Source: a virus
Lineage: Duplodnaviria > Caudoviricetes
Strand: one strand, 5' to 3'
Length of the DNA stretch: 61,504 nt
Virus record (IMG/VR): IMGVR_UViG_3300022074_000039
Span: 1-61,504 of that record
The notes beneath the pieces are model-generated. The model saw only the letters and a program-made list of their open reading frames with translations. It was not told where the DNA came from and did not search any database. Made by a program: the position numbers and the translations under genes. Of the stretch, positions 4,301 through 29,117 are shown one piece after another; position 1 is the first letter of the stretch; each line of letters opens with the position of its first letter.

Positions 4301-4302
4301 GC

Positions 4303-4310
4303 TATATTTG
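4303..4310 (+). promoter_or_regulatory. -7 element TATATTTG
   Basis: TAnnTTTG 4 nt before ATG 4315. Confidence 0.6.
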
Positions 4311-4314
4311 TGGC

Positions 4315-5977: not shown

Positions 5978-6065
5978 AGCAAATAACTGTTTTTGATTGT
6001 TTTGTAAATTCGGTTTGCTGATCTCAGTATAGGGGTAAAAAACCATTGCCTCCAAATTTTTTACA

Positions 6066-6625: not shown

Positions 6626-6752
6626 GCAAGTATTTAACTATTCCCCTGGGGACAGCAAGCGTAAGCGCCCAGGAGTACATGCCAAGACAAAGACGTCTAG
6701 CAACAAACAAAGCAAAAGCTACAAGAAGGCTTATCGCGGGCAGGGCCGTTAA
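6618..6752 (+). CDS. Small basic protein (44 aa, ends YKKAYRGQGR)
   Basis: Read by hand; overlaps the endolysin stop. Confidence 0.7.
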   Translation: MPKQVFNYSPGDSKRKRPGVHAKTKTSSNKQSKSYKKAYRGQGR

Positions 6753-8071: not shown

Positions 8072-8656
8072 ATGAAAACATTCAATTTGTTTATTGTCGA
8101 GTTAGAGAAGACAGTAAACGACACCATCACAACGTCTGGTGGTTTAGAGTTATACATAGACAATAGATTCAATGAGTTTGAAAACAGAGTTACAGAAGGC
8201 CCTGTCGTGGCTGTCCCGTTCAAGTACGAAACTTGCGTCGAGCCTGGCGACACGCTTTACTTCCATCACCTCGTGGTTGTCAACGAAGGTCAGCCACTTA
8301 CTGGTAATGATAATCACTACCTTGTCAGGTACGATGAAGACCACGCTATCAATAATCAAGCTATTGCTTTTAAAAGTAGCAGTACTGGGGCTATCTATCC
8401 TCTTGCGGGTTGGAGCCTTCTTGAACCCGTCGAAGAAGAGAAAGTTCAAAAATCGGAACTTATCGAAGTTGTCAAACTTAAGCAGAAACCAACAACAAGA
8501 GGTAGAGTCGCATTTACGTCTCCTGGGGTTGAAGCGCTAGGCTTGGAGGTTGGTGACGTAGTTGGCTTCAAAGAAAACAGAGACTATCGGATTAGGATAG
8601 ACGGCAAGGAATACTACAGAACCCGCACTGAAGACCTTATGTATGTTGAAAGATAA
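8072..8656 (+). CDS. groES: Co-chaperonin GroES-like protein with two tandem domains
   Basis: G.VVAV...VEPGDTLYF and PL...L.EP...GRV...LEVGDVV.F...IDGKEY...EDL. Confidence 0.75.
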   Translation: MKTFNLFIVELEKTVNDTITTSGGLELYIDNRFNEFENRVTEGPVVAVPFKYETCVEPGDTLYFHHLVVVNEGQPLTGNDNHYLVRYDEDHAINNQAIAFKSSSTGAIYPLAGWSLLEPVEEEKVQKSELIEVVKLKQKPTTRGRVAFTSPGVEALGLEVGDVVGFKENRDYRIRIDGKEYYRTRTEDLMYVER

Positions 8657-9336: not shown

Positions 9337-9408
9337 GCTCTCTTAGCTCAGCGGTAGAGCAGCGAACTCATAATTCGTAGGCCATTGGTTCGAATCCAAT
9401 AGGGAGCA
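9337..9408 (+). tRNA. tRNA with CAT anticodon (Ile2 or elongator Met)
   Basis: Acceptor GCTCTCT/AGGGAGC, D-arm, loop CT-CAT-AA, T-loop TTCGAAT; lacks initiator features; CCA not encoded. Confidence 0.92.
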
Positions 9409-9412
9409 CACG

Positions 9413-9757
9413 GTGCCATACAAAGACAAAAAAGATCAGGCTAATGCGGCAGCTAAACACTACCGAGAAAACAAGGGGAAAATAATCTCTAGAAGCTCTG
9501 CTAGAAACAAAAGGCAAAGAAAGAAAAACAAAGCATTTGTAGACCGAGTAAAAAGAATGTTTAACTGTGTGGACTGCGGGGAGTCAGATCCAGTAGTTCT
9601 TGATTTTGATCACGTAAAAGGGGAAAAGAAAAAAGCGATAGCTGATATGGTTTCTAACTACTACAGCATAAAAACAATAAAGGAAGAAATGAGGAAGTGT
9701 GAAATAAGATGTGCAAATTGTCATCGGAAAAAAACACATGAAAGAATGCACTCGTAG
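9413..9757 (+). CDS. HNH endonuclease
   Basis: CVDC...LDFDH...C..RCANCH; GTG start; stop lies inside tRNA-Arg. Confidence 0.85.
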   Translation: MPYKDKKDQANAAAKHYRENKGKIISRSSARNKRQRKKNKAFVDRVKRMFNCVDCGESDPVVLDFDHVKGEKKKAIADMVSNYYSIKTIKEEMRKCEIRCANCHRKKTHERMHS

Positions 9758-9821
9758 CTCAGTTGGATAGAGCATCTGCCTTCTAAGCAGACGGTCACAG
9801 GTTCGAATCCTGTCGGGTGTA
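9748..9821 (+). tRNA. tRNA-Arg(TCT)
   Basis: Acceptor GCACTCG/CGGGTGT, loop CT-TCT-AA, T-loop TTCGAAT. Confidence 0.95.
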
Positions 9822-9834
9822 CAAATTAAATTCA

Positions 9835-11952: not shown

Positions 11953-11963
11953 CAGCGATTTCT

Positions 11964-11971
11964 TATATTTG
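11964..11971 (+). promoter_or_regulatory. -7 element TATATTTG
   Basis: Between terL and portal. Confidence 0.6.
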
Positions 11972-12000
11972 CGAGATATCGAGTATAGTGCCAGAAAAAT

Positions 12001-14442: not shown

Positions 14443-14894
14443 TGGCAAGTAAGGTAAACTTAGACGTAGCAGAAAAACTAGACATCACCTGTAGAAGGGG
14501 TGATACTTTTTCTTTGACCTTGACTTTGAAAGATTCGAGCGGAACTGCTTTGCAGCTTAGTACTTTGGGATATGAGTTCTTGATGGATGTAAAGACGAAT
14601 AGCACTAAGGTGGTTGGTGGCATAAAGCAGCGCGATACGATAGCCTCTAGTAATAAGTCTGCATCTAAATCCGACGCTAAGTCTTTAACGCAGGCTCAAC
14701 AGGATCAGCTCTCTAATGCTTTTGTTTTTAGCGATGGGACTGACTCTGGAGTTGTTACTGTCACCGCTTCGGCTAGCGTTATGAGTCAGTTTCCTGTTGG
14801 AGTTTTTACATATGACATTCAACAAAATGTTGGAGGTGTTGTAACTACAATACTGCGTGGTTCATTTAGAGTAAAAGAAGATATATCGAACTGA
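14442..14894 (+). CDS. Virion structural protein (fibre-anchor-like)
   Basis: RGDTF...YDIQ...TILRG.F.V pattern; position before fibre genes. Confidence 0.6.
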
Positions 14895-14895
14895 T

Positions 14896-15351
14896 ATGCC
14901 TGAGTCAATAACAGTAACTATACCTGACGCTATTTCCCTTAACGTCACGTCCCCCAGCCCAGCTGGGGTTTCTGTGCTGTCTCCAGGCGCTAGCTCGCTA
15001 ACAGTTACCGAGAAAGGCATTAAAGGCGATACTGGAGCCACTGGAGCTACTGGCCCAACAGGTCCTCAAGGAATTCAGGGGATTCAAGGTCCAGCAGGAG
15101 CTGACGGATCTGACGGAGGCACAGATATTTCTCTTGATTCAAGTCCACAGCTAGGGGAAAACCTCGACGTACAGGCTAGGTCTCTTTTTACTAGTACTAC
15201 CGATGGCGACATACAGCTTACTCCAAATGGAACTGGAAGCATAAACCTAGACGGAACTGTTAAGTTTAAAAGATTCTCATCTGCTCCCGCTGCATTTGAA
15301 GGCGGCATGTACGCAGACAATGCTGACAATTTATACTTCGGGGTTTCTTGA
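14896..15351 (+). CDS. Collagen-repeat fibre protein
   Basis: (G-X-Y)n: [34 protein letters not shown]. Confidence 0.8.
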
Positions 15352-15381
15352 TAAATTATTACTTTTACAAAAAAAATATAG

Positions 15382-16848
15382 ATGGCTACTTGGAAGAAAA
15401 TATTAACGGAAGCAGATGCTCAAAGAGATCTTATAGCAGGCGCTGGTCTTTCTGGAGGAACAAATAATAATGTTCTTATTGGTTCTGATGCTGATGTTAC
15501 TATCGCAGTTGATATTAATGGAGCCACGGATTTAGGCAGCAGTGTTGCATCTGCGGATGAGCTTTTGGTCTCTGACGCTAACGACAGCAACAACATTAAA
15601 AAAACTACGGTAGGCGATATTGTAAACCTTGCTAGTAGCGGGGTTAGCGGAAATACGTTTGCTAGTGATTTAAAGATTGGTAGAGATGCAGACAACCTGA
15701 TTGACTTTGCCACCACTGATAATGAAATTACGTTTAGGGTTTCGGCTGCTGATGTCTTAGAGCTTACAAATGCCAGCAGTGACGTTGTTCTAACGGTGTT
15801 GACGGCAGATAAGAATTTCACAGTTAAAGGAACTGACGGTTCTTCTGCAATCACGGCCCTTGATATTGACATGGCGGCGGCTGGTAAAGCCACCTTTAAC
15901 GGAGAGATCGTTGCCCCATCTCTAGATATTGAGAATGACGTCGATATTAACGGAACTTTAGAGGCTGATGCCATCACCATCAACGGTACGGCTATTGCCT
16001 CTGTATTGAGCCCAGTTGCTGGTAACACTAGCCTTGTAACTACTGGCGCTCTTGATACTGGTTCTATTACTTCTGGGTTTGGAAACATTGACATTGGAAG
16101 CAGCAACTTAACAGCCACTGGTACTATATCTTTAGGGGCTACCTCTTTCAATGACAACAACATCACTAATGTCGGTGATATTAACGCTGACTCTATCTCT
16201 GTTGATGCGGCGTCAGTGGGTTTGAATATTGATTTTTCTGGAGCCAATACAGCAAAGAGTTTTATTACGATTGGTGATAACCTTGCGGAGGCACTGGTTA
16301 TTCAAGAGGGGAGTAATGATTACCTTCAGATTGTTACTACAAACAGCAGCGAGGCTGTAAAGATTGGTCATGGCGTTTCTGGTACCGCAATTACGATCGG
16401 CCACACTACGTCAGAGGTTACCATTGGAGATAACCTGACCGTGACGGGTGACTTAACAGTTAGTGGAACAACTACTACGATAAACACCACAAACCTTGAA
16501 GTTGAGGATCACATTATCCTGTTGGCAACGAATGCAAGTCCAACTCCAGATACTGGTGATGATGCAGGTATTTCCGTAGAGACAAGCAGCACTGCTGGTG
16601 ATAGGGCTAGAATTACTTGGGCAAAAGACCAGGGTGCATCAAATGATGGAACGTATGATGGTAGCGGCACAGCCACTGGCCTCACTGGGTGGTCATGCAC
16701 AAACCACCAAGAAAGCAATCAGGCCTCTTTCCCGATTGCCATCATGGAGTTTAGTACTAACTCAACTGCACCTACCAACAACTCTGCTGGTGTTGGCAGT
16801 TTTCACTATGATACTGGAGATGATAAATTGTACATTAGAACAGCTTAA
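15382..16848 (+). CDS. Tail fibre protein 1
   Basis: Gly/Ser/Thr-rich beta repeats, GDLTVSGTTTTINTTNL.VED motif. Confidence 0.75.
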   Translation: MATWKKILTEADAQRDLIAGAGLSGGTNNNVLIGSDADVTIAVDINGATDLGSSVASADELLVSDANDSNNIKKTTVGDIVNLASSGVSGNTFASDLKIGRDADNLIDFATTDNEITFRVSAADVLELTNASSDVVLTVLTADKNFTVKGTDGSSAITALDIDMAAAGKATFNGEIVAPSLDIENDVDINGTLEADAITINGTAIASVLSPVAGNTSLVTTGALDTGSITSGFGNIDIGSSNLTATGTISLGATSFNDNNITNVGDINADSISVDAASVGLNIDFSGANTAKSFITIGDNLAEALVIQEGSNDYLQIVTTNSSEAVKIGHGVSGTAITIGHTTSEVTIGDNLTVTGDLTVSGTTTTINTTNLEVEDHIILLATNASPTPDTGDDAGISVETSSTAGDRARITWAKDQGASNDGTYDGSGTATGLTGWSCTNHQESNQASFPIAIMEFSTNSTAPTNNSAGVGSFHYDTGDDKLYIRTA

Positions 16849-17027
16849 TGAGCGCCATATTGAAAAAGCAGGGCATTGACGTAAAAGACTTCAATGCTCA
16901 AGAATTAAATTACCTGCTCTCTCTTATTTCTAAATCTAATTTTGAGGGTAGGGATGTCTTCGTAGTTGCAGACATTGTAAATAAAATTAACTCAAAAATT
17001 AAATCTAATGAAGCTCGAAATCAATGA
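16848..17027 (+). CDS. Small protein, putative fibre chaperone (59 aa)
   Basis: Read by hand (MSAILKKQG...); paralogous to the next ORF. Confidence 0.65.
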   Translation: MSAILKKQGIDVKDFNAQELNYLLSLISKSNFEGRDVFVVADIVNKINSKIKSNEARNQ

Positions 17028-17163
17028 GGTTCAGATCTTAAATCAAGCAATATCAAATTCTACGATTAAAGGTTCTGACGCAAAAACAGTTTCTGTAATT
17101 ATCACCAAGCTGGAGAAAGAGTTCGAAAGGCTGTACAAGCTCCAGGAAAAAAAAGTAAGCTAA
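17008..17163 (+). CDS. Small protein, putative fibre chaperone (51 aa)
   Basis: Read by hand (MKLEINEVQIL...); abuts fibre 2. Confidence 0.65.
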   Translation: MKLEINEVQILNQAISNSTIKGSDAKTVSVIITKLEKEFERLYKLQEKKVS

Positions 17164-18723
17164 GTGGCAACCTGGAAGAACATATTAACAGAAGCTAGCA
17201 CTTCCGCCACTAACCTCACAAGTGTTGGTACCCTTACGACTTTGAGCGTTGACAATATTACTGTTAACGGTAATACGGTAAGTTCCACGAATACTAACGG
17301 CAATATTTTATTGGCGGCCAACGGAACTGGCAAAATAGAAGTAAGAGGTAATACTAATTCTGGTGCTGTAATTCTAAACTGCGAGGATAATAGCCATGGT
17401 GTAACATTACAGGCTCCAGCTCACGGCAGCTTTGCTGGTAGCTACACCCTAACGCTTCCTATCAATGATGGGGATGCAAATCAGTTTTTGCAAACCAATG
17501 GTAGCGGTGTGCTTTCTTGGGATGACCCTGCTGCCCTTACTGTAGCACAGGGTGGAACTGGGGCTACTTCCTTTGCTGACAAGGCGGTTCTTATCACGCA
17601 AGATAGCGGAACCGACACGGTAGCGGCTGCGGCTATGTCTACTAACGGTCAGCTACTGATTGGCGGAACAAGTGGTCCTGCTGTAGCTACCTTGACAGCA
17701 GGCAGCAACGTTACAATCACCAATGCTGATGGAGCCATAACGATAGCATCTAGTGGCGGCGACGGCAGCGGCGGAATTGCTAGCCTCTCTGAAGATAGCA
17801 ACCCAACGCTTGGCGGTGATCTCATTGTTGGGAGTAATGATATCAAGTCTGTTGGTGATGTAGAGATAGTCGTGGATAGCGACAACAACACTACGGATAG
17901 TTCCTTTACTGTTAAGAACGGAGCTGGAACTGTTTTATTTAACGTTAATGAGTCTGGGGTTACCAGCGGCTTGTTAACTACTACTACCCCTACAGCCACC
18001 TTGGGGAGCAGCTTTCAACAGGGGGCTTCTGTTACTGGCACGGTAGATAATTTTGATTCTGGCGCAACATACGTTGCAAAAATATTTAATAGCGGTGGCA
18101 CCGAACAAACGAGCAACGCAGTTACCATAAGCAGTAGCGGAGCAATAAGTTTTACCGCACCCAGCACGGTAGCTTCAGGATATGAGCTCAGGATATCTGC
18201 GACAGGAACTGGCAAGCTTATTAGCGATGAGGTGGTAAAAACTTTTGCCATAACCGCTGCCACGACTTTTGCTCACTGGAGACTTCAAGGAGTTGATTCA
18301 AGCGGTAACAATACCGCTAATAAGTGGTTTTTGCTCGACGTTGTGTTTTGGACTGGTCAGAACGCAAGCGGAACTGAATACCCTACGTCTCATTTATCAT
18401 CAGATTCAGGCGGTGGAATAAATGTAACTAGTGGTTATGCTCACAGCAGTACATACGATGATTGGAAAGCATTTGATGACAACCAAGGCAGTGGTCACTG
18501 GACCCTAGGCAATAGTACCGCAAATAATAACTGGCTTCAGGTTGAGTTTACTGCTGGAGCACTTAATGTACAAAGTATATACATAAAATCGAACACAACC
18601 TACACTGACATGCATGGCATAAAGGTTATGGGAAGCTCAAACGGGAATTTCTCTGGCGAAGAGGTTACCGTCACTACGATTACTGGTAACGATTCTACAG
18701 CTGTTACAACAACTAACCTATAA
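17164..18723 (+). CDS. Tail fibre protein 2 with C-terminal discoidin/F5-8C-like domain
   Basis: LTLP..DG...Q.L.TNGSG.LSW fibre motif; WKAFD...W...NWLQVEF; GTG start. Confidence 0.75.
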   Translation: MATWKNILTEASTSATNLTSVGTLTTLSVDNITVNGNTVSSTNTNGNILLAANGTGKIEVRGNTNSGAVILNCEDNSHGVTLQAPAHGSFAGSYTLTLPINDGDANQFLQTNGSGVLSWDDPAALTVAQGGTGATSFADKAVLITQDSGTDTVAAAAMSTNGQLLIGGTSGPAVATLTAGSNVTITNADGAITIASSGGDGSGGIASLSEDSNPTLGGDLIVGSNDIKSVGDVEIVVDSDNNTTDSSFTVKNGAGTVLFNVNESGVTSGLLTTTTPTATLGSSFQQGASVTGTVDNFDSGATYVAKIFNSGGTEQTSNAVTISSSGAISFTAPSTVASGYELRISATGTGKLISDEVVKTFAITAATTFAHWRLQGVDSSGNNTANKWFLLDVVFWTGQNASGTEYPTSHLSSDSGGGINVTSGYAHSSTYDDWKAFDDNQGSGHWTLGNSTANNNWLQVEFTAGALNVQSIYIKSNTTYTDMHGIKVMGSSNGNFSGEEVTVTTITGNDSTAVTTTNL

Positions 18724-18725
18724 TT

Positions 18726-18956
18726 ATGACGCTAAAGGAAGGAGCTACACAGGAGATAAACTCTAGGTGGCCTGAGCACAAACAAAGAAACTGTGCTCTT
18801 GTAAGAGATTTTTATGGAGATCAATATTACAAGAATATGTCCTCTGGTATTAGGCTTGTAGTTGACTTATATCAAGCCTTAAAAGAATCTGGAGCATCTA
18901 CTTGGTCTATATCTTCTTCTGACTCTTCTATACTAGACGATTTGGCTGAAACCTGA
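18726..18956 (+). CDS. Hypothetical protein, possible fibre assembly factor
   Basis: I..RWP..KQRN motif, immediately after the fibre gene. Confidence 0.6.
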   Translation: MTLKEGATQEINSRWPEHKQRNCALVRDFYGDQYYKNMSSGIRLVVDLYQALKESGASTWSISSSDSSILDDLAET

Positions 18957-18971
18957 CACTTTTGTTTTTAT

Positions 18972-18979
18972 TACCTTTG
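18972..18979 (+). promoter_or_regulatory. -7 element TACCTTTG
   Basis: 4 nt before ATG 18984. Confidence 0.6.
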
Positions 18980-18983
18980 CTAA

Positions 18984-19280
18984 ATGTCTTTGACTAAAAG
19001 CGAAAAAGCAAAGCTGAAGCGACTTGGCCTGTCTGGTTTAAGCAAGCCAAAGAGGACCCCATCACATCGTACAAAGTCGCATGTAGTAGCTGTAAGAGTC
19101 GGAGGCAAAATTAAAATTATTCGTTTTGGACAACAAGGCGCTAAGACAGCAGGAAAACCAAAGCCTGGTGATAGCGCTAAGACAAAAGCCAAACGCAAAT
19201 CATTCAAGGATCGACACAGAAAAAATATAGCTAAAGGACCATCCAGTGCTGCGTACTGGGCAAACAAAGTAAAATGGTAA
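18984..19280 (+). CDS. Conserved basic phage protein
   Basis: IRFGQQG...RKSFK.RH...SAAYWANKVKW. Confidence 0.85.
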   Translation: MSLTKSEKAKLKRLGLSGLSKPKRTPSHRTKSHVVAVRVGGKIKIIRFGQQGAKTAGKPKPGDSAKTKAKRKSFKDRHRKNIAKGPSSAAYWANKVKW

Positions 19281-21346
19281 GACTAATTCTATTTTTATTA
19301 CTGTTACCATTATATGCTTTTGCTCAACCTAGCTGGGTAAACGTCACCATACTTAGCGATCTCTACAGCGGAGAAACTACTTGGGAGATATACAATGGGC
19401 CACAAGTTGTGGCTCAGTCCTCTATACCTTACCAGAGCAATAACCTATCTAACGAGATGGTGTATCTCCCGTCTGGGGATTACGAGTTTGTAATCTATGA
19501 CTCTTTCGGAGATGGAATTTGTTGCGAGTTTGGTGAAGGGTGGTTTGCTCTTAGTAACACGTGCGGAGTTGACACGGCGGTATTCGATTTCAACATCGAT
19601 CAGTTAACAATTCCGTTTGTACTTGAGCCATGTGAGCCTCTCATCCCTGGCTGCATGGATGAATCAGCAAACAACTATAACCCTTGGGCTAGCGTAGACA
19701 ACGGAAGCTGCAACGTAAGTGAGTGCCCAGAAGGCGAGGCATTTGTATCTATGGAGCTCACGCTAGACAACTGGCCTAATGAAACTGGTTTTACTCTCGT
19801 TGACTTGGCCGTTGGTGAGTTCTATGAACAGGTGCTTCCAGGGCAGTTTAACTTCGCTGATCAATTAGCTACGTACACCTACGACTTTTGCGTGGCTCTA
19901 GGTTTTGAGTTAATCCTCACAGATACGTATGGCGACGGGCTCAACGGTACCTCTACAGGGGGCGTGGCTGATGGAGCTGTCACTATTACTGCCTGCGGTG
20001 ATTCTGTTATATGGGAACTAGAGGACTTGGGATTTACTGAGAACGGTGGAAACGTAGCTTACTCTGGCGCCGTGTTTGTAGAGCCCTGCGAAACGGACAG
20101 CGTAATCATGGGCTGCATGGACGACGACTACGTAGATTACAACCCAGAGGCCACAGAGCCAGCAGACTGCTTGACATTACACACCTGGGGTTGTATGGAT
20201 ACAGCAGCATTCAACTACGATGTAAACGCTACTATCTCCGATCTGAACAGCCCCTGCGTAACGACCATTACCCTTGAAGATGATGCAGGAGATGGATGGG
20301 GCAACTCACACGTAGGCGTAAAGCAAGGAGACTTGCAATGGATATTTACCGTCGGGCCAGGAGAGTTCTCTCAGTCATGGGATTTAGTGTTAGACTCTGA
20401 CGAAGAGGTAGATGTATACTACTTCGAGATCGGAGGACCACAACAGCCTCCACAAGAGACGCAGTTTCAGACGCTTCACAACTCTATTATTATAACCAAC
20501 GAGGCTGGGGACACCCTGATGGTTGAGGGGGACAATCCATTTTTTGATAACGGGCAGGGTGCCCTACAGCCATTTGGTAATCCTGAGTGGAACGTATATC
20601 ACTTTACCCCGTACTGCGGAACTAGCTGTTTACCATACGTTTACGGATGCTTAGATGTAGACGCACAGAACTACATTGACGAGGCTAATACAGATGACGG
20701 AAGCTGTTACTATGCTGCTGGTTGTACACAAGCTGGATACCTAGAATATTATACACAAGGCTACGAGGCAGATTTTGACGACGGCAGCTGCGAAGTGCTA
20801 GCAGTATTCGGATGTACAGACGCCGAAGCCCTGAACTATAATGAAGAAGCAAATGTTGATAACGACAGCTGTGTCCCCGTGATCGTAGGATGCACAGATA
20901 TCAATGCTTTCAACTACGACGAGGAGGCCAACACGCCAGACAACGAGTCTTGCCTGTACGATGCTGACTGCGTAGGAGAACCAGGCGATCCGTACTGGGC
21001 CAACGACGAGTGCTACATGTGGGTGATTGATGTTGACCCGTACTGCTGCGAGTCTGAATGGGATAACACCTGCGTAAGCCTGTACAGCTATTGCCAAGAC
21101 GGTACCGCCACATACATCCCTTACTTCGATTCTGAAGTAAAAGTGTTCCCAAACCCCGTGGCTAGAACCTTGACTGTGAGATCTAGCAATCCTGTAACCA
21201 TTGAGGTTTACAATTCTCTAGGAGCTCTTGTTGTTCCGCAAACTACTGACAATCAGATTGATATGTCTGCTATGCCAGTAGGAATGTATCAAGTTGTTAT
21301 TAGACATGACGGTAGATCCATCGTAAAAAACATATCTAAGCAATGA
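19274..21346 (+). CDS. Secreted Cys-repeat protein with T9SS type A C-terminal sorting domain
   Basis: Signal peptide ...YAFA-Q; seven GCxD...NY...C repeats; C-terminal VFPNP...YNSLG...GMY.V...K. Confidence 0.88.
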   Translation: MVRLILFLLLLPLYAFAQPSWVNVTILSDLYSGETTWEIYNGPQVVAQSSIPYQSNNLSNEMVYLPSGDYEFVIYDSFGDGICCEFGEGWFALSNTCGVDTAVFDFNIDQLTIPFVLEPCEPLIPGCMDESANNYNPWASVDNGSCNVSECPEGEAFVSMELTLDNWPNETGFTLVDLAVGEFYEQVLPGQFNFADQLATYTYDFCVALGFELILTDTYGDGLNGTSTGGVADGAVTITACGDSVIWELEDLGFTENGGNVAYSGAVFVEPCETDSVIMGCMDDDYVDYNPEATEPADCLTLHTWGCMDTAAFNYDVNATISDLNSPCVTTITLEDDAGDGWGNSHVGVKQGDLQWIFTVGPGEFSQSWDLVLDSDEEVDVYYFEIGGPQQPPQETQFQTLHNSIIITNEAGDTLMVEGDNPFFDNGQGALQPFGNPEWNVYHFTPYCGTSCLPYVYGCLDVDAQNYIDEANTDDGSCYYAAGCTQAGYLEYYTQGYEADFDDGSCEVLAVFGCTDAEALNYNEEANVDNDSCVPVIVGCTDINAFNYDEEANTPDNESCLYDADCVGEPGDPYWANDECYMWVIDVDPYCCESEWDNTCVSLYSYCQDGTATYIPYFDSEVKVFPNPVARTLTVRSSNPVTIEVYNSLGALVVPQTTDNQIDMSAMPVGMYQVVIRHDGRSIVKNISKQ

Positions 21347-22578
21347 AAAAACTATTAGCTATTGCAATGACGGCAATGAGCTTTTGCTCGTTATCTCAGC
21401 CAGACCTGGTTGTAAGTGAGCTCTACACGGACAGCCTTTGTGTTAGTAACATACCCTACTACTCTGTTCACTTCGTTGTAACTAACGAGGGTGATGAGGT
21501 CAGCGATTACTTCTGCTACGAGCTAGACGGAAACGAAGCCTGTCCAGACACCTCTAACGGTAATTACCCGTTGAGTCCAGGCGGCAATAGATCCTTCAGT
21601 GTGGGCTGGCTTAATTTCAATAATTTTGGTGAGCCTCTAACTGTTGAGGTTGTAAACGATGAAGATGAAGTAAACACGTTAAATAATTCATCAACCATTA
21701 TTATACCAGATCAACATGAGTGTCCTCCCCTTGAGGTTGATCTTAGCGTAGACACAGTGCTTTATGATTTTGGTTGCGACGTGCTTGGCCCGTATCTAGA
21801 ACCGCAGATTTTTATGTCCAATCATGGCACTGAAGACATAACCGAATTCTGTGTAAAGTTTCAGATACTCGGACAAACAAATGATACTGTTTGTTTTACT
21901 GGTCAAAGCTATCTTCCCCTAGCGTCTGGCTCTATGGCTGTCCAACAGTGGCCTAGGATATATGTAGATGGAGTTCTTAGTCTTCACCTTCTAGATGTAA
22001 ATGGGGAGGGTGGATTTTGGTGGATGGATTTTGGTATTGATGAGAACACATATAACAACACTTATGTGGAGGTGCTGCCTAACATAGACACTTCTTGGTG
22101 TACGTCTGGATGTACAGATGAGATGGCTTGTAATTATATAGGTGATGTATTTATAGACGACGGTTCATGCGAGTACCCAGAGCTGTACTACAATTGCGAA
22201 GGTGAGTGCGAGTACGATACAGACGAGGACGGAATCTGTGATCAGCTTGAGATCCCTGGCTGCACTGATCCGCTAGCTAACAACTACAATGCAGACGCAA
22301 CAGACGATGATGGTACTTGTGAGTATACAGTAAATGTAGCTCGTGAGGTATACGATATAGAACAGTTAAATGTCTACCCCAACCCGTTTGATGATGTAAT
22401 CTACGTGTCAAACATTCCTGGATCTCTTTGTAGAGTAAGAGATTTAAACGGAAGAGTTGTGGTAGAAAGAACTACTTCTGCTGTGATAAGCATGAACTAC
22501 CTAAGTGAAGGAACTTACTTGGTTGACTGGATCGTAGAGGGAAAAGTAATTCTAACTAAAAAGATTATGAAGAGATGA
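21343..22578 (+). CDS. Secreted CARDB/Ig-like Cys-repeat protein with T9SS type A sorting domain
   Basis: Signal peptide; PDLVV...N.G...E.N..NN CARDB-like pattern (twice); two GCTD repeats; YPNPF...DLNGR...GTYLV...KKIMK. Confidence 0.85.
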   Translation: MKKLLAIAMTAMSFCSLSQPDLVVSELYTDSLCVSNIPYYSVHFVVTNEGDEVSDYFCYELDGNEACPDTSNGNYPLSPGGNRSFSVGWLNFNNFGEPLTVEVVNDEDEVNTLNNSSTIIIPDQHECPPLEVDLSVDTVLYDFGCDVLGPYLEPQIFMSNHGTEDITEFCVKFQILGQTNDTVCFTGQSYLPLASGSMAVQQWPRIYVDGVLSLHLLDVNGEGGFWWMDFGIDENTYNNTYVEVLPNIDTSWCTSGCTDEMACNYIGDVFIDDGSCEYPELYYNCEGECEYDTDEDGICDQLEIPGCTDPLANNYNADATDDDGTCEYTVNVAREVYDIEQLNVYPNPFDDVIYVSNIPGSLCRVRDLNGRVVVERTTSAVISMNYLSEGTYLVDWIVEGKVILTKKIMKR

Positions 22579-23615
22579 GGCTGATTGCTGCTTTGATTTT
22601 TGTGATGTTCAGCTTTACTGCTGAAGCTCAGTTCTTGAAGAAGACATTCAAGTTCGCTACTTTCTACACAGCTTTCAGCGGGAACAACTCTGTGTCTGAC
22701 GTAGATGTTTACTCTGTAGCCAACGGACCACTGCAAGTAGACGTCATCGAGACCCCGTTTGACTACTCGCTCACAGCGGGCGTAAGAAAGATCGCTAGGT
22801 TCTCATACGAGAACAGAGCTAACAACTTCTACAGTGGCAACGAGCAGTCATATAGCGATGCTGCTACAATCGGAAAGGTCAAGGGCTTTGAGTTTCTATT
22901 TCAAGGCTCGTACCAAAGGCAGCAAGGAGTACAGTTCCTAAACCAAGATCACTTCCTTAGATACGTAGCGAACAACTGGATCGCAAAAGTTGAGTACCTG
23001 CAAGACGGGTTTGCTGACGTTAGTTACTTTGAGGGATCGCAAAGAGGCAGGTTGAACTTAGGTAAGAAGCTTTCGCTTAACCTTGGCGTAGTGCAAAGGC
23101 TGTCTGAGCCATACGGCTATGATCCGCTCGCAGATTGGACGCTAGAAAACAACAGCATCCACTATACACAACTAGCCATCGAGGAAGGTTACAACGTAGA
23201 CTTTGACTCTGGAGAGTTCCTGAGCCCTGACGGAGACTTAGTTGCAGAGAACGTACAAGTATGGGAGTCTGTGGTAATACCACAAGTTTTGATTGACTAC
23301 ACAGATAGAAAGCGTAGCGAACTACCCAGCCAGTGGAATTACTCTTTGATTGCTGGTTTTGACTTCTACCATTTCACGCAGGACTTCTGGCTTCACAGCT
23401 GGGCTAACGTATTGCCATATCACCTAGATTCAGAAAGCGAATACTCTTATCAAAACTTTCTAGATGGAGACCAATGGATTGACTACTCAGGAGGGTTGGT
23501 ATTCGGGTGGAAACTAAACAAGAGCCTGGGGATGTTCCTAGAAGGCAGATACCATAAATACTGGAACAGAGAGTGGCACAACTTCTCTGTCGGTGTGAAC
23601 TACGTAATTATTTGA
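22575..23615 (+). CDS. Putative outer-membrane beta-barrel protein
   Basis: Signal peptide ...AEA-Q; aromatic alternating strands; terminal FSVGVNYVII beta-signal-like strand. Confidence 0.7.
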   Translation: MRLIAALIFVMFSFTAEAQFLKKTFKFATFYTAFSGNNSVSDVDVYSVANGPLQVDVIETPFDYSLTAGVRKIARFSYENRANNFYSGNEQSYSDAATIGKVKGFEFLFQGSYQRQQGVQFLNQDHFLRYVANNWIAKVEYLQDGFADVSYFEGSQRGRLNLGKKLSLNLGVVQRLSEPYGYDPLADWTLENNSIHYTQLAIEEGYNVDFDSGEFLSPDGDLVAENVQVWESVVIPQVLIDYTDRKRSELPSQWNYSLIAGFDFYHFTQDFWLHSWANVLPYHLDSESEYSYQNFLDGDQWIDYSGGLVFGWKLNKSLGMFLEGRYHKYWNREWHNFSVGVNYVII

Positions 23616-23616
23616 T

Positions 23617-23901
23617 ATGGCAAAAGAACTAAACGAAGACACAGGATTTCACGTAAGCGTCAAAACGCTTGCAGGTATTGGCGCTGGAATGGCAGCCATC
23701 ATCAGCATGTGGTTTGTGCTACAGGCAGACATTGCAGAAGCAAAGGAGCTTCCCGTGCCACCAGACCCAGAGATTACACGTATGGAATTTGATATGAAGG
23801 ACCAATTAATTCGACAGACTATTATGTCTACTCAGGAAGATGTCACTGAGATTAAACAGGATATGAAAAGGATCGAAGAAAAAATCGACAAACTAAAATG
23901 A
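23617..23901 (+). CDS. Single-TM coiled-coil membrane protein
   Basis: Hydrophobic LAGIGAGMAAIISMWFVL, then a coiled coil. Confidence 0.75.
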   Translation: MAKELNEDTGFHVSVKTLAGIGAGMAAIISMWFVLQADIAEAKELPVPPDPEITRMEFDMKDQLIRQTIMSTQEDVTEIKQDMKRIEEKIDKLK

Positions 23902-23904
23902 GGA

Positions 23905-24270
23905 ATGAAAACTCTTGCCATTGTATTATTTGCGCTATTATCGGCAACTGCTTTTGTGGCTGTTGTAACGGCTGAGGAAACGGAAGTCTGTCAGTCAGGA
24001 ATTTGTGTTGTTGAATTCAATGCTGCTTTCAACGCACAGAATAGCGTAGATTGGATTGATAAACTTAGCGACTGCGAAGTGGCTAGGGTTGATATCCTTG
24101 AGCGCCCCGATATGCAAAAGGATCACAATATAGTTGTGGTTCCTACGATCATTGTTTTTAATGAAGGCGAAGAAGAAAAGCGCTTTCAGGCTAACATTAT
24201 GATGACCGTTGACGCAACAAAAAAAGATGTGCAGGGTGTGATAGATGAAATTATAATGAGCTCTTTCTAA
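23905..24270 (+). CDS. Secreted thioredoxin-fold protein lacking CxxC
   Basis: Signal peptide; VVEFNAAFN replaces V.F.A.WC..C; VD and I..VPTIIVF..G.E..R are retained. Confidence 0.75.
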   Translation: MKTLAIVLFALLSATAFVAVVTAEETEVCQSGICVVEFNAAFNAQNSVDWIDKLSDCEVARVDILERPDMQKDHNIVVVPTIIVFNEGEEEKRFQANIMMTVDATKKDVQGVIDEIIMSSF

Positions 24271-24464
24271 TGAAAACTTTGAAATACAAAAAGGGTGGTA
24301 AGTTCAGCATCACCAACAAGAAGATGTCAATCGATCCCCCTAAGGGCTATCACTGGATGGAAGAAGGAGGTAGATACTATCTGATGAAAGGAGACTACGC
24401 TCCACACCCTGGAGCTGTAGAGAAGGCTACTTTTAAAATGGCGGACCACCCAAAGAAGAAATAA
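24270..24464 (+). CDS. Small hypothetical protein
   Basis: YKKGGK N-terminus; PPKGYHWM motif. Confidence 0.75.
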   Translation: MKTLKYKKGGKFSITNKKMSIDPPKGYHWMEEGGRYYLMKGDYAPHPGAVEKATFKMADHPKKK

Positions 24465-24730
24465 TGGCAAAGAACGCAGCACAACAGGCAGCTATTGCTA
24501 TCTCTAAAAAAGAAAGAGGCGAAGCGCCCAAAGCCAAAAAGGGCATGAAGTTCAACCCGAAGTATACTCGTGGCAGTTCAGACGTGTCCAGAAGAAAGAA
24601 GCTTATGGCACAGATCTCTGCTATTTACAAAAAACACAGAGGCACAAAACAAAAAAGAAAGAAGAAAGGATTTCCACCAGCCGTTGCCGCTCGACTGAAG
24701 AGGCTCATGGCACAAAGAGATAAGATATGA
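24464..24730 (+). CDS. Small basic protein
   Basis: AQQAAIAISKK motif; Lys-rich. Confidence 0.75.
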   Translation: MAKNAAQQAAIAISKKERGEAPKAKKGMKFNPKYTRGSSDVSRRKKLMAQISAIYKKHRGTKQKRKKKGFPPAVAARLKRLMAQRDKI

Positions 24731-24936
24731 AAGTATTAAAGAAGGGCGGCATGTCAGGTTTGGATGCTGCTCAAAAACAAGTGTATCGTAGAGGGCTTGC
24801 GGCATACATGTCTTCTGGCAACCGACCAAAGGTTTCTCAACATGCTTGGGCTATGGCTAGAGTAAAGTCTGCTTTTGGCAAGAGGGAGGCGGCTAAGATC
24901 AGGGCTGGCAAGGGTAAAAAGAAGAAGAAAAAATAA
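24727..24936 (+). CDS. Small basic protein (DUF5824-like)
   Basis: VYRRG.AAY..SG.RP...AWAMARV. Confidence 0.7.
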   Translation: MKVLKKGGMSGLDAAQKQVYRRGLAAYMSSGNRPKVSQHAWAMARVKSAFGKREAAKIRAGKGKKKKKK

Positions 24937-24940
24937 TGGT

Positions 24941-24948
24941 TATATTTG
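24941..24948 (+). promoter_or_regulatory. -7 element TATATTTG
   Basis: Upstream of the head operon. Confidence 0.6.
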
Positions 24949-24968
24949 CATTTATATAAAGAATAATT

Positions 24969-25370
24969 ATGGCTACAACCACTGCAACAATTACACTTTC
25001 GAGTAGTGACCTTACTGGTGACGCTCTTGCGCTGTCTACTACAGCGACACTAACCAAAGCTGGAAACTCAACTGGTTTAACTCAGACTACTGGTATCGGT
25101 AGAAAAACCACATCTGCCACCTCTCAATACGTTTTGTTTGATGGGTCCAGCTATGGTAACGGAGCTCACAAAGTTTATTTAAAAAACACTAGCACTATTG
25201 CTGGGGAGTTTTTAACTATTGAAATTAATTCTGAGCAGATGGGTAAGCTTTATGCTGGTGACTGGGCTTTCTTCCCTTGGGAGGCAAACGCTGACACTAA
25301 CGACATTAAGATTGCGCCAAGTGTTTCTACAGCAATAACCTTGGAGTACGCTTTGTTTATTGACGAGTAA
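24969..25370 (+). CDS. Putative virion structural protein
   Basis: Paralog of 25370; in the head cluster. Confidence 0.7.
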   Translation: MATTTATITLSSSDLTGDALALSTTATLTKAGNSTGLTQTTGIGRKTTSATSQYVLFDGSSYGNGAHKVYLKNTSTIAGEFLTIEINSEQMGKLYAGDWAFFPWEANADTNDIKIAPSVSTAITLEYALFIDE

Positions 25371-25789
25371 TGGCAACAGTACGCGCTTCACTCAGCCTGA
25401 ATAGTGCTGACGTGCTTACAAGCGCGTTGGCCTTAACTACGGTGGCTAATCTTAACTGTGACTCTGGCGCTTTGATCAGAGCCAAAGTAAAAGCTACCGA
25501 TCACGATACTACTGCTCTCCGTATTTACGCTGCCAATCAGTGTAACGAAAGGGCTTACGTCTACTTAAAAAATCTTGATACTGAGCTTGAGCAATACGTT
25601 TACATATACAACGACTCTGAAGCTGATGCTCTTGTAGCCAAGATCGGAGGCGGTGAGTTTGCTTTTGTCCCCGTTGCAGTGGACAAAGCTTACGTAGTTT
25701 ATGCAACCAAGGTAGACACGATGGTCGAGTACGGTGTATTCGGTAACGACAACTCAACTGTTCCGTTCACTGGAGCTGGAATAGATTAA
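25370..25789 (+). CDS. Putative virion structural protein
   Basis: Paralog of 24969 (MAT..A...L.S.D....AL.L; YLKN; EY..F). Confidence 0.7.
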   Translation: MATVRASLSLNSADVLTSALALTTVANLNCDSGALIRAKVKATDHDTTALRIYAANQCNERAYVYLKNLDTELEQYVYIYNDSEADALVAKIGGGEFAFVPVAVDKAYVVYATKVDTMVEYGVFGNDNSTVPFTGAGID

Positions 25790-25799
25790 TAGATAAGAC

Positions 25800-26522
25800 A
25801 TGGCACAAACGAAGGGTTTTTTAGAAAAGCTAGTTGGTCAAAGCATGGCTGCTCCTGGCACCTACAACAAAGCCACTGGCGGACAGGGCTACGCCGTTGG
25901 GATTACAAATGGTCAAAAATTTTTTGCTGGGTTGGGCTTTGATGGAAAAACCATTAATGTTGATGGTGCTGCCTCACACGGCTATGTGTACACGGACAAC
26001 GATGAAGATCTCGAAGTATTCGTAGACACAGCCGCTAAAATTGTTTACCCTACAGGAGAAACTGAAACTCTAATATCTATGGATGACGCTGAGATTATCA
26101 AAGGCTCATTGGTCTTAATCGAAGGTCACGTTGATAGCGATGGGCTTAGCAATGACGGGCTGTACAAAGTTAAGAGCTTTGATGCCAGTGCGTCTTCTTT
26201 TCACCTTGAAAACATCAACTTTGAAGGGTTTTTAGACGACATCAAGGATGGGGTGTCTGACGCAGACGACTCAGGATCTGTTTATGGAACAATGACGTTG
26301 CTTCCGTTTCCCCCTACGTTTAAAATAGTTCCGCTTGACGATGGAGGAATTGCTTCTATTCAGGCTAACAACTGGGCTGGAACAGACGATATTGTAGCAG
26401 ATATTCCAGCGGGAACAGAGCTTCTGGTTGAGGCATTCCAGGTTACTTCTGCTGGCAGCAATGCTTCTTGTATCTGTTACTTGCCCTGCTACCCCAGCCT
26501 CAAGTTCCATCCGCAGAAGTAG
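25800..26522 (+). CDS. Hypothetical protein, probably structural
   Basis: ORF in the head cluster. Confidence 0.7.
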   Translation: MAQTKGFLEKLVGQSMAAPGTYNKATGGQGYAVGITNGQKFFAGLGFDGKTINVDGAASHGYVYTDNDEDLEVFVDTAAKIVYPTGETETLISMDDAEIIKGSLVLIEGHVDSDGLSNDGLYKVKSFDASASSFHLENINFEGFLDDIKDGVSDADDSGSVYGTMTLLPFPPTFKIVPLDDGGIASIQANNWAGTDDIVADIPAGTELLVEAFQVTSAGSNASCICYLPCYPSLKFHPQK

Positions 26523-26552: not shown

Positions 26553-27689
26553 ATGAATAATCAACCTGATCAAATCGCAGGAATGAAGGTCTTCAGTAAT
26601 CCTGAGGACCTTGCTGCATCTATGAATACCGCTTCAGAAACCACAACTGAGGCGCCTGTACAACAAGAAGAAGCTGCCCAAGAGCAGCCCGTAGAACAGC
26701 CTGTAGTCGAGCAACAGCCCCCACAAGAAGCTGCTCCAGTACAGCAAGAAGAAACAGTTCAGGCTCAACCACAAGCGGTTGAACCTACAACAAATACAGA
26801 ACCTGAGTATACAGAGCAAGACGTCGAGTCTGCTGTGTTTTCTTTCCTGAGTAATAAGCTTGGTAGAGACGTCACTTCACTCGATGATTTGTCTGTTACT
26901 CAACAAACAGAAGCAAAAGCTTTAGACGAAAGGATCGAGGCCATCGCAAAGTTCGTAGAGGAAACGGGCCGCGCACCAGAAGATTGGTTTAGGTTTCAGT
27001 CATTGAATCCAGAGGGTATGGATGATATGACGGCTATCCGTATTCAGGTAGCTAATGAGCACCCAAACTTGTCGTATGATGAGCTCAATCTATTAGTCAA
27101 CAGCAAGTACAAGTTGGACACAGACCTCTACACAGAGGACGAAGTAAAGCTTGCACAGCTTCAGTTAAAAATGGATGGTGACAAAGCCAGAAGCAGCATT
27201 GAGGGAATCAGAAGTAGCTATTCTGCCCCTGCGTCTCAGGACAGCTCCCCATCCGAACCAGAATCTTTGATTGACGATGCGTGGATCGCAGAGATGTCCA
27301 AAGAGGTTGACGCGCTTGACGGTTTAGAGTTTGACCTGGGCGACGAAAACACTCTTGAGTTTGGACTAGATGCCAACTACAAATCGCAATTGAAGGATCG
27401 CAATGCTCGTCTTGACGAGTTCTTTGACCCATATGTTCGGGATGACGGTAGCTGGGATCACGACAAGCTGTCGGCCCACATGGCAGTTATCGACAACATC
27501 GACAGGATTGTAAAGTCGGCTTACACCAGAGGATTAGGTGACGGCCAGCGGACTCTTGTTGATACAGCCGCTAACGTCTCTACTGAAAGTCCGCAACAGG
27601 TGGTTCAAAACCAACAAACCAATCCGTTGGCTGACCAGCTAAAAAATATTCTCGGCAGTCAGTCCAACAGACTAACTTTTAAAATCTAA
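26553..27689 (+). CDS. Capsid scaffolding protein (putative)
   Basis: Acidic, Q/E/P-rich N-terminus, helical, directly before the major capsid gene. Confidence 0.65.
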   Translation: MNNQPDQIAGMKVFSNPEDLAASMNTASETTTEAPVQQEEAAQEQPVEQPVVEQQPPQEAAPVQQEETVQAQPQAVEPTTNTEPEYTEQDVESAVFSFLSNKLGRDVTSLDDLSVTQQTEAKALDERIEAIAKFVEETGRAPEDWFRFQSLNPEGMDDMTAIRIQVANEHPNLSYDELNLLVNSKYKLDTDLYTEDEVKLAQLQLKMDGDKARSSIEGIRSSYSAPASQDSSPSEPESLIDDAWIAEMSKEVDALDGLEFDLGDENTLEFGLDANYKSQLKDRNARLDEFFDPYVRDDGSWDHDKLSAHMAVIDNIDRIVKSAYTRGLGDGQRTLVDTAANVSTESPQQVVQNQQTNPLADQLKNILGSQSNRLTFKI

Positions 27690-27695
27690 AAAATT

Positions 27696-29117
27696 ATGGC
27701 TACTACAGCTACTACAACCGTAGACCATACAGCATCTGGTGCTCAGTATAGACTGACACCTGAGAAGTATACTACGATTGATACATTGCTAGATCCTACA
27801 AAGGATTTTGTAATTCCTCAACTTGTTGAGACTTACGGTGATCAAGGTATCACTGGATTCATGAAAATGACTGGCGCGGTTATCGCTGGTGGAACTGCCG
27901 ATCAAGTTGATTGGTGGGAAATCGGTCGTCGTCACAGAACCATCCTTGGTACTTTGGACGCAACATCTGGTCAGTCTGATGTCTTTGTTCCTGATGGAAC
28001 TGCTGAAACTGCTGGAGCCAACGAGGATCCTGCTACTATTAAGCACTTGCAAAACAACGACATCATTATGAATGTCGCTAATGGCGCGCGCTACTTGGTT
28101 ACTGATGATCAAAGAACAGAAACCTCCACTTTGGATGGTGATGCTGTGACTGTTGTTCGCTTGGACGGTGCAGCCTTTTCTTCTGCTGACCCAGTAGTTA
28201 CAGGAACTTTTGCCGTCGTTGGTAACATGTACGCTCAGGGTTCTGATCAGCCTAACCGCTTTGTAACTCAAGACCTCAAGAGACGTCAGTCTCCGTTTGC
28301 GATTGTGAAGGGTCGTTACGAAGTCAACGGCTCACAAGCAACCAACATCGGATGGATTGACATCGGAGGCGGTGACTTCCGTTGGTTCATGTACGAAGAG
28401 GCTAATGCTCGTAAGCGCTTTGAAGATCAGCGTGAGTTGACTATGTTGTTTGGTGAAAAGCAGGCAGATACTTCTACTGCTGTAGCTAAAGACATCGCTG
28501 GTACTGAGGGTTACTTCTCTGCTTTGGAAAACAGAGGCATTCAGGTGAGCAACGCCAATGCTAACCCTCTCGATTCTTTCGCTGAGTTTGACGACATCAT
28601 CATCGAGCTCGACCGTCAAGGCGCTCCTGCTGAGTACGCTATGTACGTAAACAGAAAGCAAGACCTCGCTATCGACGACATGCTCGCATCTGGTATCGCA
28701 ACTAGCGTTACTGCTGGTCTCCCAGGTCAGTTCGGTGCATTCCAGAACTCTCCTGACATGGCTGTACAGCTTGGATTCAAGAGCTTCACTCGCGGTGGTT
28801 ACACTTTCCACAAGCACGACTGGAGATTGTTGAACGATCCTACTTTGGCTGGAGCTGGCGTAGCATTCCAAGGCGTTATGTGCCCTATGTCTCAAGTGGC
28901 TGACCCACGAACAGGATCTAAGGCTCCTGCTTTGGCGATGTACTACAAAGAGGCAAACGGATACTCTCGTGAAATGGAGCACTGGGTATCTGGTGGCGGT
29001 GTATTGGGTCACACCAACAACGGTGACGCAGGTACTGACCAGGCTGTATTCCACTACAGATCTGAAATTGCTATGTGTGTCCGCGCTGCTAATCAGCACG
29101 TACTCATCAAGGGATAA
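27696..29117 (+). CDS. Major capsid protein
   Basis: 473 aa after scaffold; strongly biased codons; GTEG.F..LE.RG and LGF.SF.RG.Y.F motifs; followed by a hairpin. Confidence 0.85.
   Translation: MATTATTTVDHTASGAQYRLTPEKYTTIDTLLDPTKDFVIPQLVETYGDQGITGFMKMTGAVIAGGTADQVDWWEIGRRHRTILGTLDATSGQSDVFVPDGTAETAGANEDPATIKHLQNNDIIMNVANGARYLVTDDQRTETSTLDGDAVTVVRLDGAAFSSADPVVTGTFAVVGNMYAQGSDQPNRFVTQDLKRRQSPFAIVKGRYEVNGSQATNIGWIDIGGGDFRWFMYEEANARKRFEDQRELTMLFGEKQADTSTAVAKDIAGTEGYFSALENRGIQVSNANANPLDSFAEFDDIIIELDRQGAPAEYAMYVNRKQDLAIDDMLASGIATSVTAGLPGQFGAFQNSPDMAVQLGFKSFTRGGYTFHKHDWRLLNDPTLAGAGVAFQGVMCPMSQVADPRTGSKAPALAMYYKEANGYSREMEHWVSGGGVLGHTNNGDAGTDQAVFHYRSEIAMCVRAANQHVLIKG

Follow-up and report, generated by a model that had tools for sequence, protein, structure and literature searches.

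Why should a phage encode proteins that end in a sorting signal for a bacterial secretion system? The question is raised by five adjoining genes, here called P1 to P5 in their order on the strand, in IMGVR_UViG_3300022074_000039, a complete IMG/VR virus record (CheckV completeness 100%) whose 61,504 bases constitute the window of this analysis. The secretion system of type IX (T9SS) builds the surface coat of Bacteroidota, their gliding adhesins and many of their secreted enzymes, and P1 and P2, as judged from their sequences, carry both of the signals that define its type A cargo. The wider finding is a four-gene module, delimited by homology searches and widespread, in which a cargo gene is joined to P3, P4 and P5, three proteins without a known family. 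Phage-encoded T9SS cargo has already been published, and it is the obligate cargo-plus-trio module that appears to be new. A literature search for a paper describing the trio found none; the trio is nameless, and the result is hence weak evidence of its being unpublished.

Predicted type A cargo in a phage gene block

The C-terminal domain (CTD) of P1 and P2 carries much of the argument. An initial annotation of the window had read this domain as the T9SS type A sorting signal, and hidden Markov model (HMM) searches with TIGR04183/Por_Secre_tail bear that reading out in both proteins. Against curated cut-offs of 27 bits for PF18962 and 23 bits for TIGR04183, P1 scores 38.1 bits (residues 624-686) and 38.7 bits, and P2 scores 28.1 bits (residues 344-408) and 28.8 bits, respectively; the matches reach within 0-4 residues of the last residue. 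A profile of the cargo family also matches the solved T9SS CTDs 7pzj, 8glk_D, 8glj_D, 5jvk and RgpB 5hfs, and PF18962 is found at E<=0.01 in 21 of 24 P1-like or P2 proteins from divergent loci.

The second signal lies at the other end of the proteins. The N-termini of P1, P2, P3 and P5 are hydrophobic: a basic residue precedes a hydrophobic core, which is followed by a small-x-small site. P4 has an internal hydrophobic segment. Signal peptides were judged by a heuristic script that asks for a hydrophobic N-terminal core and then a small residue followed by Gln at the cut; it accepts 23/24 cargo proteins, 26/32 members of the P3 family (three of the exceptions being truncated entries) and 14/20 members of the P5 family, and the site it gives for P5 of the window is probably wrong. 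Gln stands directly after the predicted cut in P1, P2 and P3, is invariant as Q18 in all 24 aligned P1-like/P2 proteins, and is kept in at least 90% of 24 P3 relatives. Bacteroidetes signal peptidase I substrates follow this pattern, the Q-rule, as set out in the cited part of PMC5837995, and it was noted earlier for Porphyromonas phage proteins in a passage of PMC10367356. The Sec signal peptides proposed at the outset for the two cargo genes therefore fit by this heuristic, with a family-wide Gln at +1. Given both predicted signals, P1 and P2 are probably exported, first by Sec and then by the host T9SS.

Between these signals, both proteins are acidic and rich in cysteine (P1, 30 Cys and 113 D+E vs 9 K+R; P2, 18 Cys and 69 D+E vs 15 K+R). 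The repeat GCxD..(N/D)(Y/F)..C occurs in six strict copies in P1 and two in P2. Earlier counts of seven and two are thus correct for P2, whereas in P1 a seventh copy exists only in degenerate form near residue 484, read by eye from the translation. An 8-Cys knot at residues ~566-607 of P1, just before the sorting domain, is near-invariant in aligned P1-like/P2 proteins, and the N-terminal region of P2 is CARDB-like, below the cut-off. P1 is the most variable member of the block. Its family comprises 1940 metagenome-protein matches, and among the matches listed PF18962 is present in 107/120 and PF26780 in 3/120, while a full-length match to P2 is confined to close relatives (L003-L007 and L024). 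Neither P1 nor P2 yielded an enzymatic domain; one of the 24 scanned cargo proteins has a Peptidase_M43 domain. A search with P1 stripped of its sorting domain gave short matches, at domain level, in 43 genomes out of 151 sampled from the class of G002; its N-terminal GDG domain and Cys repeats are what match in these cellular genomes, inside large open reading frames (ORFs) of up to 5377 aa. The GDG region gives four repeat matches to the extender region of the RTX adhesin 6xi3, all sub-threshold. The cargo looks like a mosaic of host-type surface-protein modules, and such a composition would fit an adhesin-like or calcium-binding surface protein. In a separate observation, locus L037 holds, ~1 kb downstream of the module, a 586-aa ORF (15006-16766, minus strand) with 29.5% identity to P1 and no sorting domain.

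Comparable cargo has been described in other phages. Bellas et al. 2020 (PMC7468147) report three variable T9SS cargo genes in 'Cryophage', a glacier phage, and propose that the host T9SS is hijacked; de Jonge et al. 2019 (PMC6949934) report ORFs with T9SS sorting domains upstream of the head genes of crAss-like gut contigs. As far as the cited sections describe them, these systems share with the present one a phage T9SS type A domain, a position near head genes and variability between phage variants. They differ in that their cargo consists either of enzymes (endoglucanase, GH39 and PA14-domain proteins) or of BACON-repeat proteins, whereas here it is an acidic Cys-repeat protein, and in that the same sections describe no conserved companion genes, whereas here three phage-specific envelope proteins, as predicted, accompany the cargo. 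Cellular cargo of type A, for instance RgpB of Porphyromonas gingivalis and that of Flavobacterium johnsoniae (CTDs 5hfs, 8glj, 8glk), likewise combines a Sec signal peptide with a C-terminal beta-sandwich sorting domain; the genes described here differ in lying in the structural operon of a lytic-looking phage and in encoding no enzymatic domain that could be found.

The companion trio and its linkage to the cargo gene

Whether the five genes form one system, as was first supposed, can be judged from related loci. Pooled from IMG/VR and a species-genome collection, these number 47 without duplicates, 43 of them with P3; linkage was assessed in the 26 P3 loci with at least 4 kb on both sides, several of which are near-identical, so that the independent lineages are fewer than 26. 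P4, P5 and a P1-like gene are present in all 26, the cargo gene always within ~2.3 kb of the P3-P5 genes. Since 18 of the 26 loci were retrieved by P3 alone, the presence of a cargo gene in those 18 does not arise by construction. A system of four genes, P1-like plus P3-P5, is accordingly what the linkage upholds; P2, being limited to the nearest relatives, falls outside it.

Gene order varies. Among 25 tabulated loci it is cargo-P3-P4-P5 in 11, P3-P4-P5-cargo in eight, cut by the contig end in four and rearranged in two (L050 and L053), with P4 and P5 upstream of the cargo gene and its adjoining P3. The loci of the first and last of these arrangements make up the 13/25 in which the cargo ORF ends no more than 200 nt upstream of the P3 start, often with a 4-nt overlap. 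The module is found in at least three phage backbones, with TerL identities to that of the window of 80% (G159) and 27-28% (G157 and G158); the complete 178-kb record G154, which has direct terminal repeats, gave no TerL match to that of the window and holds the module together with exactly one sorting-domain ORF. No sorting-domain ORF was found in the two nearest GenBank relatives. The strict co-occurrence through rearrangement and across backbones, along with the frequent coupling of cargo and P3, suggests that the cargo and the trio work together.

The comparison of phage contigs with host chromosomes, which the initial annotation had seen as informative, also favours a phage module, the cargo and trio being together in 26/26 loci with sufficient flank and P3 in no isolate genome. 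Only 7 of 185,579 species genomes hold P3, all on contigs of metagenome-assembled genomes (MAGs), and these are labelled Parvibaculum, Nitrosopelagicus, Sphingobacteriales, Flavobacteriales, Winogradskyella, Rickettsiales and Maricaulis; such discordant taxa are the pattern expected of mis-binned phage contigs. The genes are also under purifying selection: dN/dS (the ratio of nonsynonymous to synonymous substitution rates) of the five is 0.027-0.063 against L003 and 0.039-0.140 against L005, the remaining comparisons being saturated. Given the HMM E-values, the dN/dS of 0.03-0.14 and the conservation in many independent contigs, the block is beyond chance. In GenBank phage records, neither tblastn of each of P1-P5 (50,697 records) nor blastn of the whole block found a match; PADLOC gave zero matches for P1-P5, and PHROGs gave no family for P1, P2, P3 or P5 and one faint match for P4 (E 0.005).

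P3, which has no cysteine and 18% aromatic residues, has 3324 metagenome-protein relatives, and among the matches listed a Pfam domain is present in 0/120. It finds no match in Pfam, NCBIfam, PHROGs or PADLOC, and its profile has 0 matches to PDB sequences. Nor did 32 divergent relatives find any, save for one marginal match to the TDE1717 outer-membrane barrel model (E 0.009). A language-model search places P3 among purely viral clusters, and the closest ESM Atlas clusters that bear a name are barrels of the autotransporter and OmpG kinds (0.94-0.95), which can serve as a lead only. For the beta-barrel-like character that the initial annotation had given P3, these leads are weak. The C-terminal G(I/L)NY.. 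motif is conserved, with a variable last residue. In a crude test, the beta-moment count of P3 is 9 vs 6.7 +/- 2.7 in shuffles; comparison with DUF481 in hhalign gives 4.5%, in a setting where unrelated barrel families used as controls do not cross-match either, and mean-field direct coupling analysis, at an effective number of sequences (Neff) of 41, gives a signal dominated by alignment artefacts. By these searches P3 is a phage-specific family, predicted to be secreted and without known relatives, and it is possibly an outer-membrane protein.

P4 had been taken for a coiled-coil protein with one transmembrane segment, and its architecture agrees: besides the single predicted helix, residues 52-94 (~43 residues) fit a single heptad register, with ILMVF at 0.75 of the a/d positions vs <=0.42 in the other six registers. 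No family was found for it in Pfam or NCBIfam. The secreted thioredoxin fold ascribed to P5 is likewise sustained, by a match to Thioredoxin PF00085 at 24.0 bits (cut-off 23.5) and by an N-terminal signal peptide; the family profile also picks up solved thioredoxins, 2vim_A foremost (E 1.7e-6). P5 thus shares with the thioredoxin superfamily the fold and the cis-Pro loop, its V79-P80-T81 motif being invariant, as is a C-terminal Phe, and C57 being near-invariant. It differs in being secreted, as predicted, and in lacking the WCGPC loop, which aligns to a 5-residue gap in the comparison with a solved thioredoxin and in whose place F-N-A-x-x-N is found in 20/20 relatives. The loop being deleted family-wide, P5 is rejected as a usual disulfide oxidoreductase and would be redox-inactive. 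Of two apparent fusions, a read-through of P4 into P5 on a 701-bp contig and a HATPase_c chimera of P5, neither is convincing.

Table 1. Features of the P1-P5 block in the window (signal peptides and membrane helix as predicted).
Feature	Position	Strand	Length and parts
P1	19274-21346	+	690 aa; signal peptide 1-17 (AFA before the cut, Q after); three GDG-motif domains; Cys repeats; 8-Cys knot; CTD
P1 sorting domain	21143-21343	+	residues 624-690; six-frame HMM match 21143-21331
P2	21343-22578	+	411 aa; signal peptide 1-18 (SLS before the cut, Q after); 2 Cys repeats; T9SS type A CTD
P2 sorting domain	22372-22575	+	residues 344-411; six-frame HMM match 22372-22566
P3	22575-23615	+	346 aa; signal peptide 1-18 (AEA before the cut, Q after); C-terminal G(I/L)NY.. 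motif
P4	23617-23901	+	94 aa; membrane helix 17-35 (nt 23665-23721); short Pro-rich linker; coiled coil 52-94
P5	23905-24270	+	121 aa; signal peptide 1-23; thioredoxin fold without CxxC loop

Readings of the module

The reading that we prefer, and to which we give somewhat better than even credence as a whole, is that of an accessory module of the phage, its products bound for the host envelope and not for the virion, with the trio handling or docking the cargo. The block genes would be co-transcribed with the late structural genes, since they share the strand and have overlapping stops and starts. P1, and here also P2, would cross the inner membrane via Sec and be cut by signal peptidase I before Gln, in the usual Bacteroidota pattern; the periplasm would be where the cargo folds, presumably with disulfides and calcium, and its type A CTD would pass it to the host T9SS, so that it would end at the cell surface or in the medium as an acidic, adhesin-like protein. 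P4 would serve as an inner-membrane anchor with a periplasmic coiled coil, P5 as a periplasmic, redox-inactive thioredoxin fold acting as a holdase for the Cys-rich cargo, and P3, secreted and probably in the outer membrane, as a phage-specific partner. Encoded right after the cargo gene, P3 may be a cognate outer-membrane partner in the way that PorP/SprF proteins follow type B cargo genes. The sequences show both export signals, how the proteins are built, their co-occurrence, purifying selection and an origin in phages. The timing of expression, the secretion itself, the location of P3, the contacts among the proteins and the benefit to the phage are what we infer in this scheme. The initial annotation had proposed that the phage routes its own proteins through the T9SS so as to remodel the host surface; the routing is supported by predicted export signals, and the remodelling would be one conceivable role for it.

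The likeness to the type B systems deserves some care. In SprB-SprF, as in other type B cargo with PorP/SprF, the gene directly after that for the cargo encodes a secreted protein of ~310-350 aa, probably in the outer membrane, and the pair is conserved as a unit, according to the cited portions of PMC12618676 and PMC9143113. The CTDs here are of type A, whereas theirs are of type B, and P3 is matched by the PorP_SprF, PorV and PorQ models neither directly nor profile to profile. SprF is described in the cited part of PMC12635249 as using C-tail cysteines, and P3 has none. Because P3 fails the PorP/SprF, PorV and PorQ tests, and because type A domains are said to use PorV, the likeness is one of layout only, and is offered as an analogy. 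The candidates behind it were rejected as follows: the window P3 has no match to PF11751, NF033710 or NF033711.

Several further points weigh against the preferred reading. In three MAGs that hold both, the PorP_SprF, PorV and PorQ HMMs find the host genes but miss the P3 homologues; hhalign of P3 against T9SS outer-membrane families gives 18.9% (over the signal peptide only), 1.1% and 1.3%, vs 97.4% for a PorV-PorQ control; and 0/32 members of the P3 family match a T9SS family in NCBIfam. PorV recognises all type A CTDs according to the cited text of PMC12618676, so that a dedicated partner is not known to be required. P5 is without catalytic cysteines. The module sits within the structural gene block, and in other lineages (L051 and L052) the trio adjoins lysis genes. 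Export is read from sequence, and the host is deduced only from TerL relatives. Finally, the P1-like protein of L053 (5341-7578) ends in a short atypical C-terminal tail, not a full sorting domain, and the MAG that contains it (1.8 Mb, labelled Rickettsiales) has zero PF18962 matches; L053 is either a mis-binned phage contig or a variant that dropped T9SS use.

Candidate benefits to the phage include the masking or blocking of T9SS-dependent receptors, the exclusion of other phages and the adhesion of infected cells. Mutations in gliding motility genes are described as a phage defence in Flavobacterium in the cited part of PMC9804748. A bolder proposal, which we regard as doubtful, is that P3-P4-P5 form a phage-built envelope apparatus acting on the host T9SS, either as a private shuttle, anchor or holdase set through which the infected cell displays a variable, adhesin-like phage cargo or as a device that jams the T9SS so that T9SS-dependent receptors vanish. 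If true, viral accessory machinery for a bacterial secretion system would here be seen for the first time, in a form widespread in uncultured marine Bacteroidota phages. More generally, a module that feeds phage proteins into the T9SS would represent a new viral route to alter host surfaces in the sea, with possible effects on particle adhesion, on the exclusion of other phages and on the fate of lysing cells. The families concerned are large (3324 relatives of P3 and 1940 of P1), with none in cultured phages, implying a common feature of marine flavobacterial phages that has so far gone unstudied.

Could the trio be devoted instead to lysis? Under this alternative, which the initial annotation had not raised and which we hold to be unlikely, P3-P4-P5 would be a spanin-like device for envelope disruption, in which P4 would supply the coiled-coil arm at the inner membrane, P3 would be its counterpart in the outer membrane and P5 an adaptor in the periplasm, with the cargo a separate linked passenger. 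Two-component spanins are exemplified by Rz/Rz1 of phage lambda. P4 has the layout of an i-spanin, an N-terminal membrane helix followed by a predicted periplasmic coiled coil, and a search of the window's real genes turned up neither a lipobox ORF nor any other candidate spanin. Lysis genes are close to the trio in two further lineages: in L051 P5 is directly followed by an Amidase_2+PG_binding_1 endolysin, and in L052 a Phage_holin_4_1 gene comes 1.5 kb after it. A DUF5675 gene, of a family without assigned function, stands ~3.7 kb after P5 in L008. The window itself offers neither a lipoprotein partner nor a lysis-cassette setting for the trio, from which the endolysin and holin candidates are 17 and 24 kb away. 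The periplasmic part of P4 is only ~58 residues long, and the partner would have to be a thioredoxin-fold protein together with P3, which at 346 aa, highly conserved and not a lipoprotein, is unlike the outer-membrane lipoproteins that serve as o-spanins. Above all, lysis leaves unexplained the cargo gene beside the trio in 26/26 loci and its frequent coupling to P3. If the trio did serve lysis after all, it would qualify as a candidate for disrupting the outer membrane, a lysis step for which the phage has no other candidate gene.

A distinctly less probable alternative holds that P1 and P2 are virion parts, fibres or decorations, whose CTD-like ends are Ig-like structural domains, with P3-P5 as assembly factors and the N-termini unused for export. 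The setting lends itself to this idea, the module being placed between portal/fibre-like and scaffold/capsid genes and interleaved, in other backbones, with small structural-looking proteins, and the variability of P1 resembles that of receptor-binding proteins. Four of the five proteins, however, have predicted signal peptides of canonical form, and the Bacteroidota-specific Gln at +1 is conserved across families; the CTD stands at the extreme C-terminus and scores above curated cut-offs; the 30 cysteines of P1 argue for oxidative folding outside the cytoplasm; and no PHROG virion-protein family matches any of P1-P5.

Misassembly of host chromosomal DNA into a viral contig, the remaining alternative and one suggested by the resemblance of P1 domains to those of cellular proteins, is excluded by contigs from independent runs that bridge the block edges to phage genes (contigs from two other studies, X4, 18610-19588 and 24032-25310, and X5, 24058-24621) and by the recurrence of the same genes in the same place in many independent viral contigs, to which may be added an even G+C across the region, the presence of the stretch in runs of 10 studies labelled viral, marine or seawater metagenome, and the restriction of P3 to genomes other than those of isolates.

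The phage, its host and the surroundings of the block

The window is a lytic-looking podophage whose late operon carries the five-gene block. Its phage genes include the large terminase (phrog_6681), the portal (phrog_6547), a capsid-type gene (phrog_13704) and a series of virion proteins. Searches of the window found neither a tyrosine integrase nor a serine recombinase, in keeping with the earlier description of a phage without a recognisable integrase. The record ends, 1-3221 and 58066-61504, are mutually repeated at 94.6-98.7% identity with an indel of ~220 bases, from which the genome unit is ~58.1-58.3 kb; the repeat is not an exact terminal repeat and probably reflects the wrap-around assembly of a permuted genome from two strain variants.

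The host is most likely a member of the Bacteroidota, as judged by TerL relatives. TerL of the window matches 94 GenBank phage records, every one at <60% identity, of which 89 bear the name of a Bacteroidota genus (Flavobacterium 68, Cellulophaga 15, Tenacibaculum 2, Azobacteroides 2, Maribacter 1) and six are without a host name. Three Bacteroidota MAGs with related contigs encode PorV, PorQ and PorP/SprF; four other MAGs with such contigs are not Bacteroidota. The protein at 39966-40925 contains PF25729, the C-terminal domain of the crAss-virus muzzle protein (27.7 bits vs a cut-off of 27), and this domain ties the marine podophage to crAss-like tail architecture.

The initial annotation was also right about the packing of the block, five genes between fibre and head genes: the ORFs lie at the positions in Table 1, with 4-nt overlaps between P1 and P2 and between P2 and P3, and gaps of 1 nt between P3 and P4 and 3 nt between P4 and P5. 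The outermost genes, P1 and P5, each overlap the adjoining gene. A fibre-like gene (17164-18723) lies upstream, and scaffold-like and capsid genes (26553-29117) lie downstream. In the window the interval from portal to scaffold-like gene is occupied by an accessory island of ~12 kb (14442-26522), which contains a collagen-like gene, fibre-like genes, the five-gene block and several small basic proteins; in the two closest GenBank relatives the portal gene is followed directly by scaffold-like and capsid genes, with no island. A sigma-70 promoter scan gave 24 sites vs 25.3 expected, and a Bacteroidota-type promoter motif gave 5 sites vs 1.86 expected, none adjoining the module; no RNA data sets were found among the sequencing runs that hold the stretch.

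The block is flanked by four small, very basic proteins (18984-19280, 24270-24464, 24464-24730 and 24727-24936), one of which matches phrog_7595 and one DUF5824. Beside the module, unrelated backbones repeatedly carry small paralogous proteins of ~130 aa that resemble one another at both termini: in the window at 24969-25370 and 25370-25789, in L050 at 11457-12728, in L048 at 6175-6995 and in L053 at 4174-4985, where they are placed between P4 and P5.

The endolysin candidate of the window (6155-6625) is a Peptidase_M15_3 match of 68.8 bits, and its divergent neighbour (5570-6055, minus strand) encodes a protein with an internal signal-like segment. The holin candidate (48290-48727), at the end of the structural operon, encodes 145 aa with two C-terminal hydrophobic segments and without a Pfam match; it resembles, by eye, proteins of 131-140 aa that adjoin the module in L008, L010, L013 and L053. 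Two tRNA genes, tRNA-Met (CAT) at 9337-9409 and tRNA-Arg (TCT) at 9748-9822, lie just upstream of the large terminase gene. The protein at 8072-8656 has a Cpn10/GroES match in its C-terminal half, and the nearest GenBank relatives encode GroEL and GroES.

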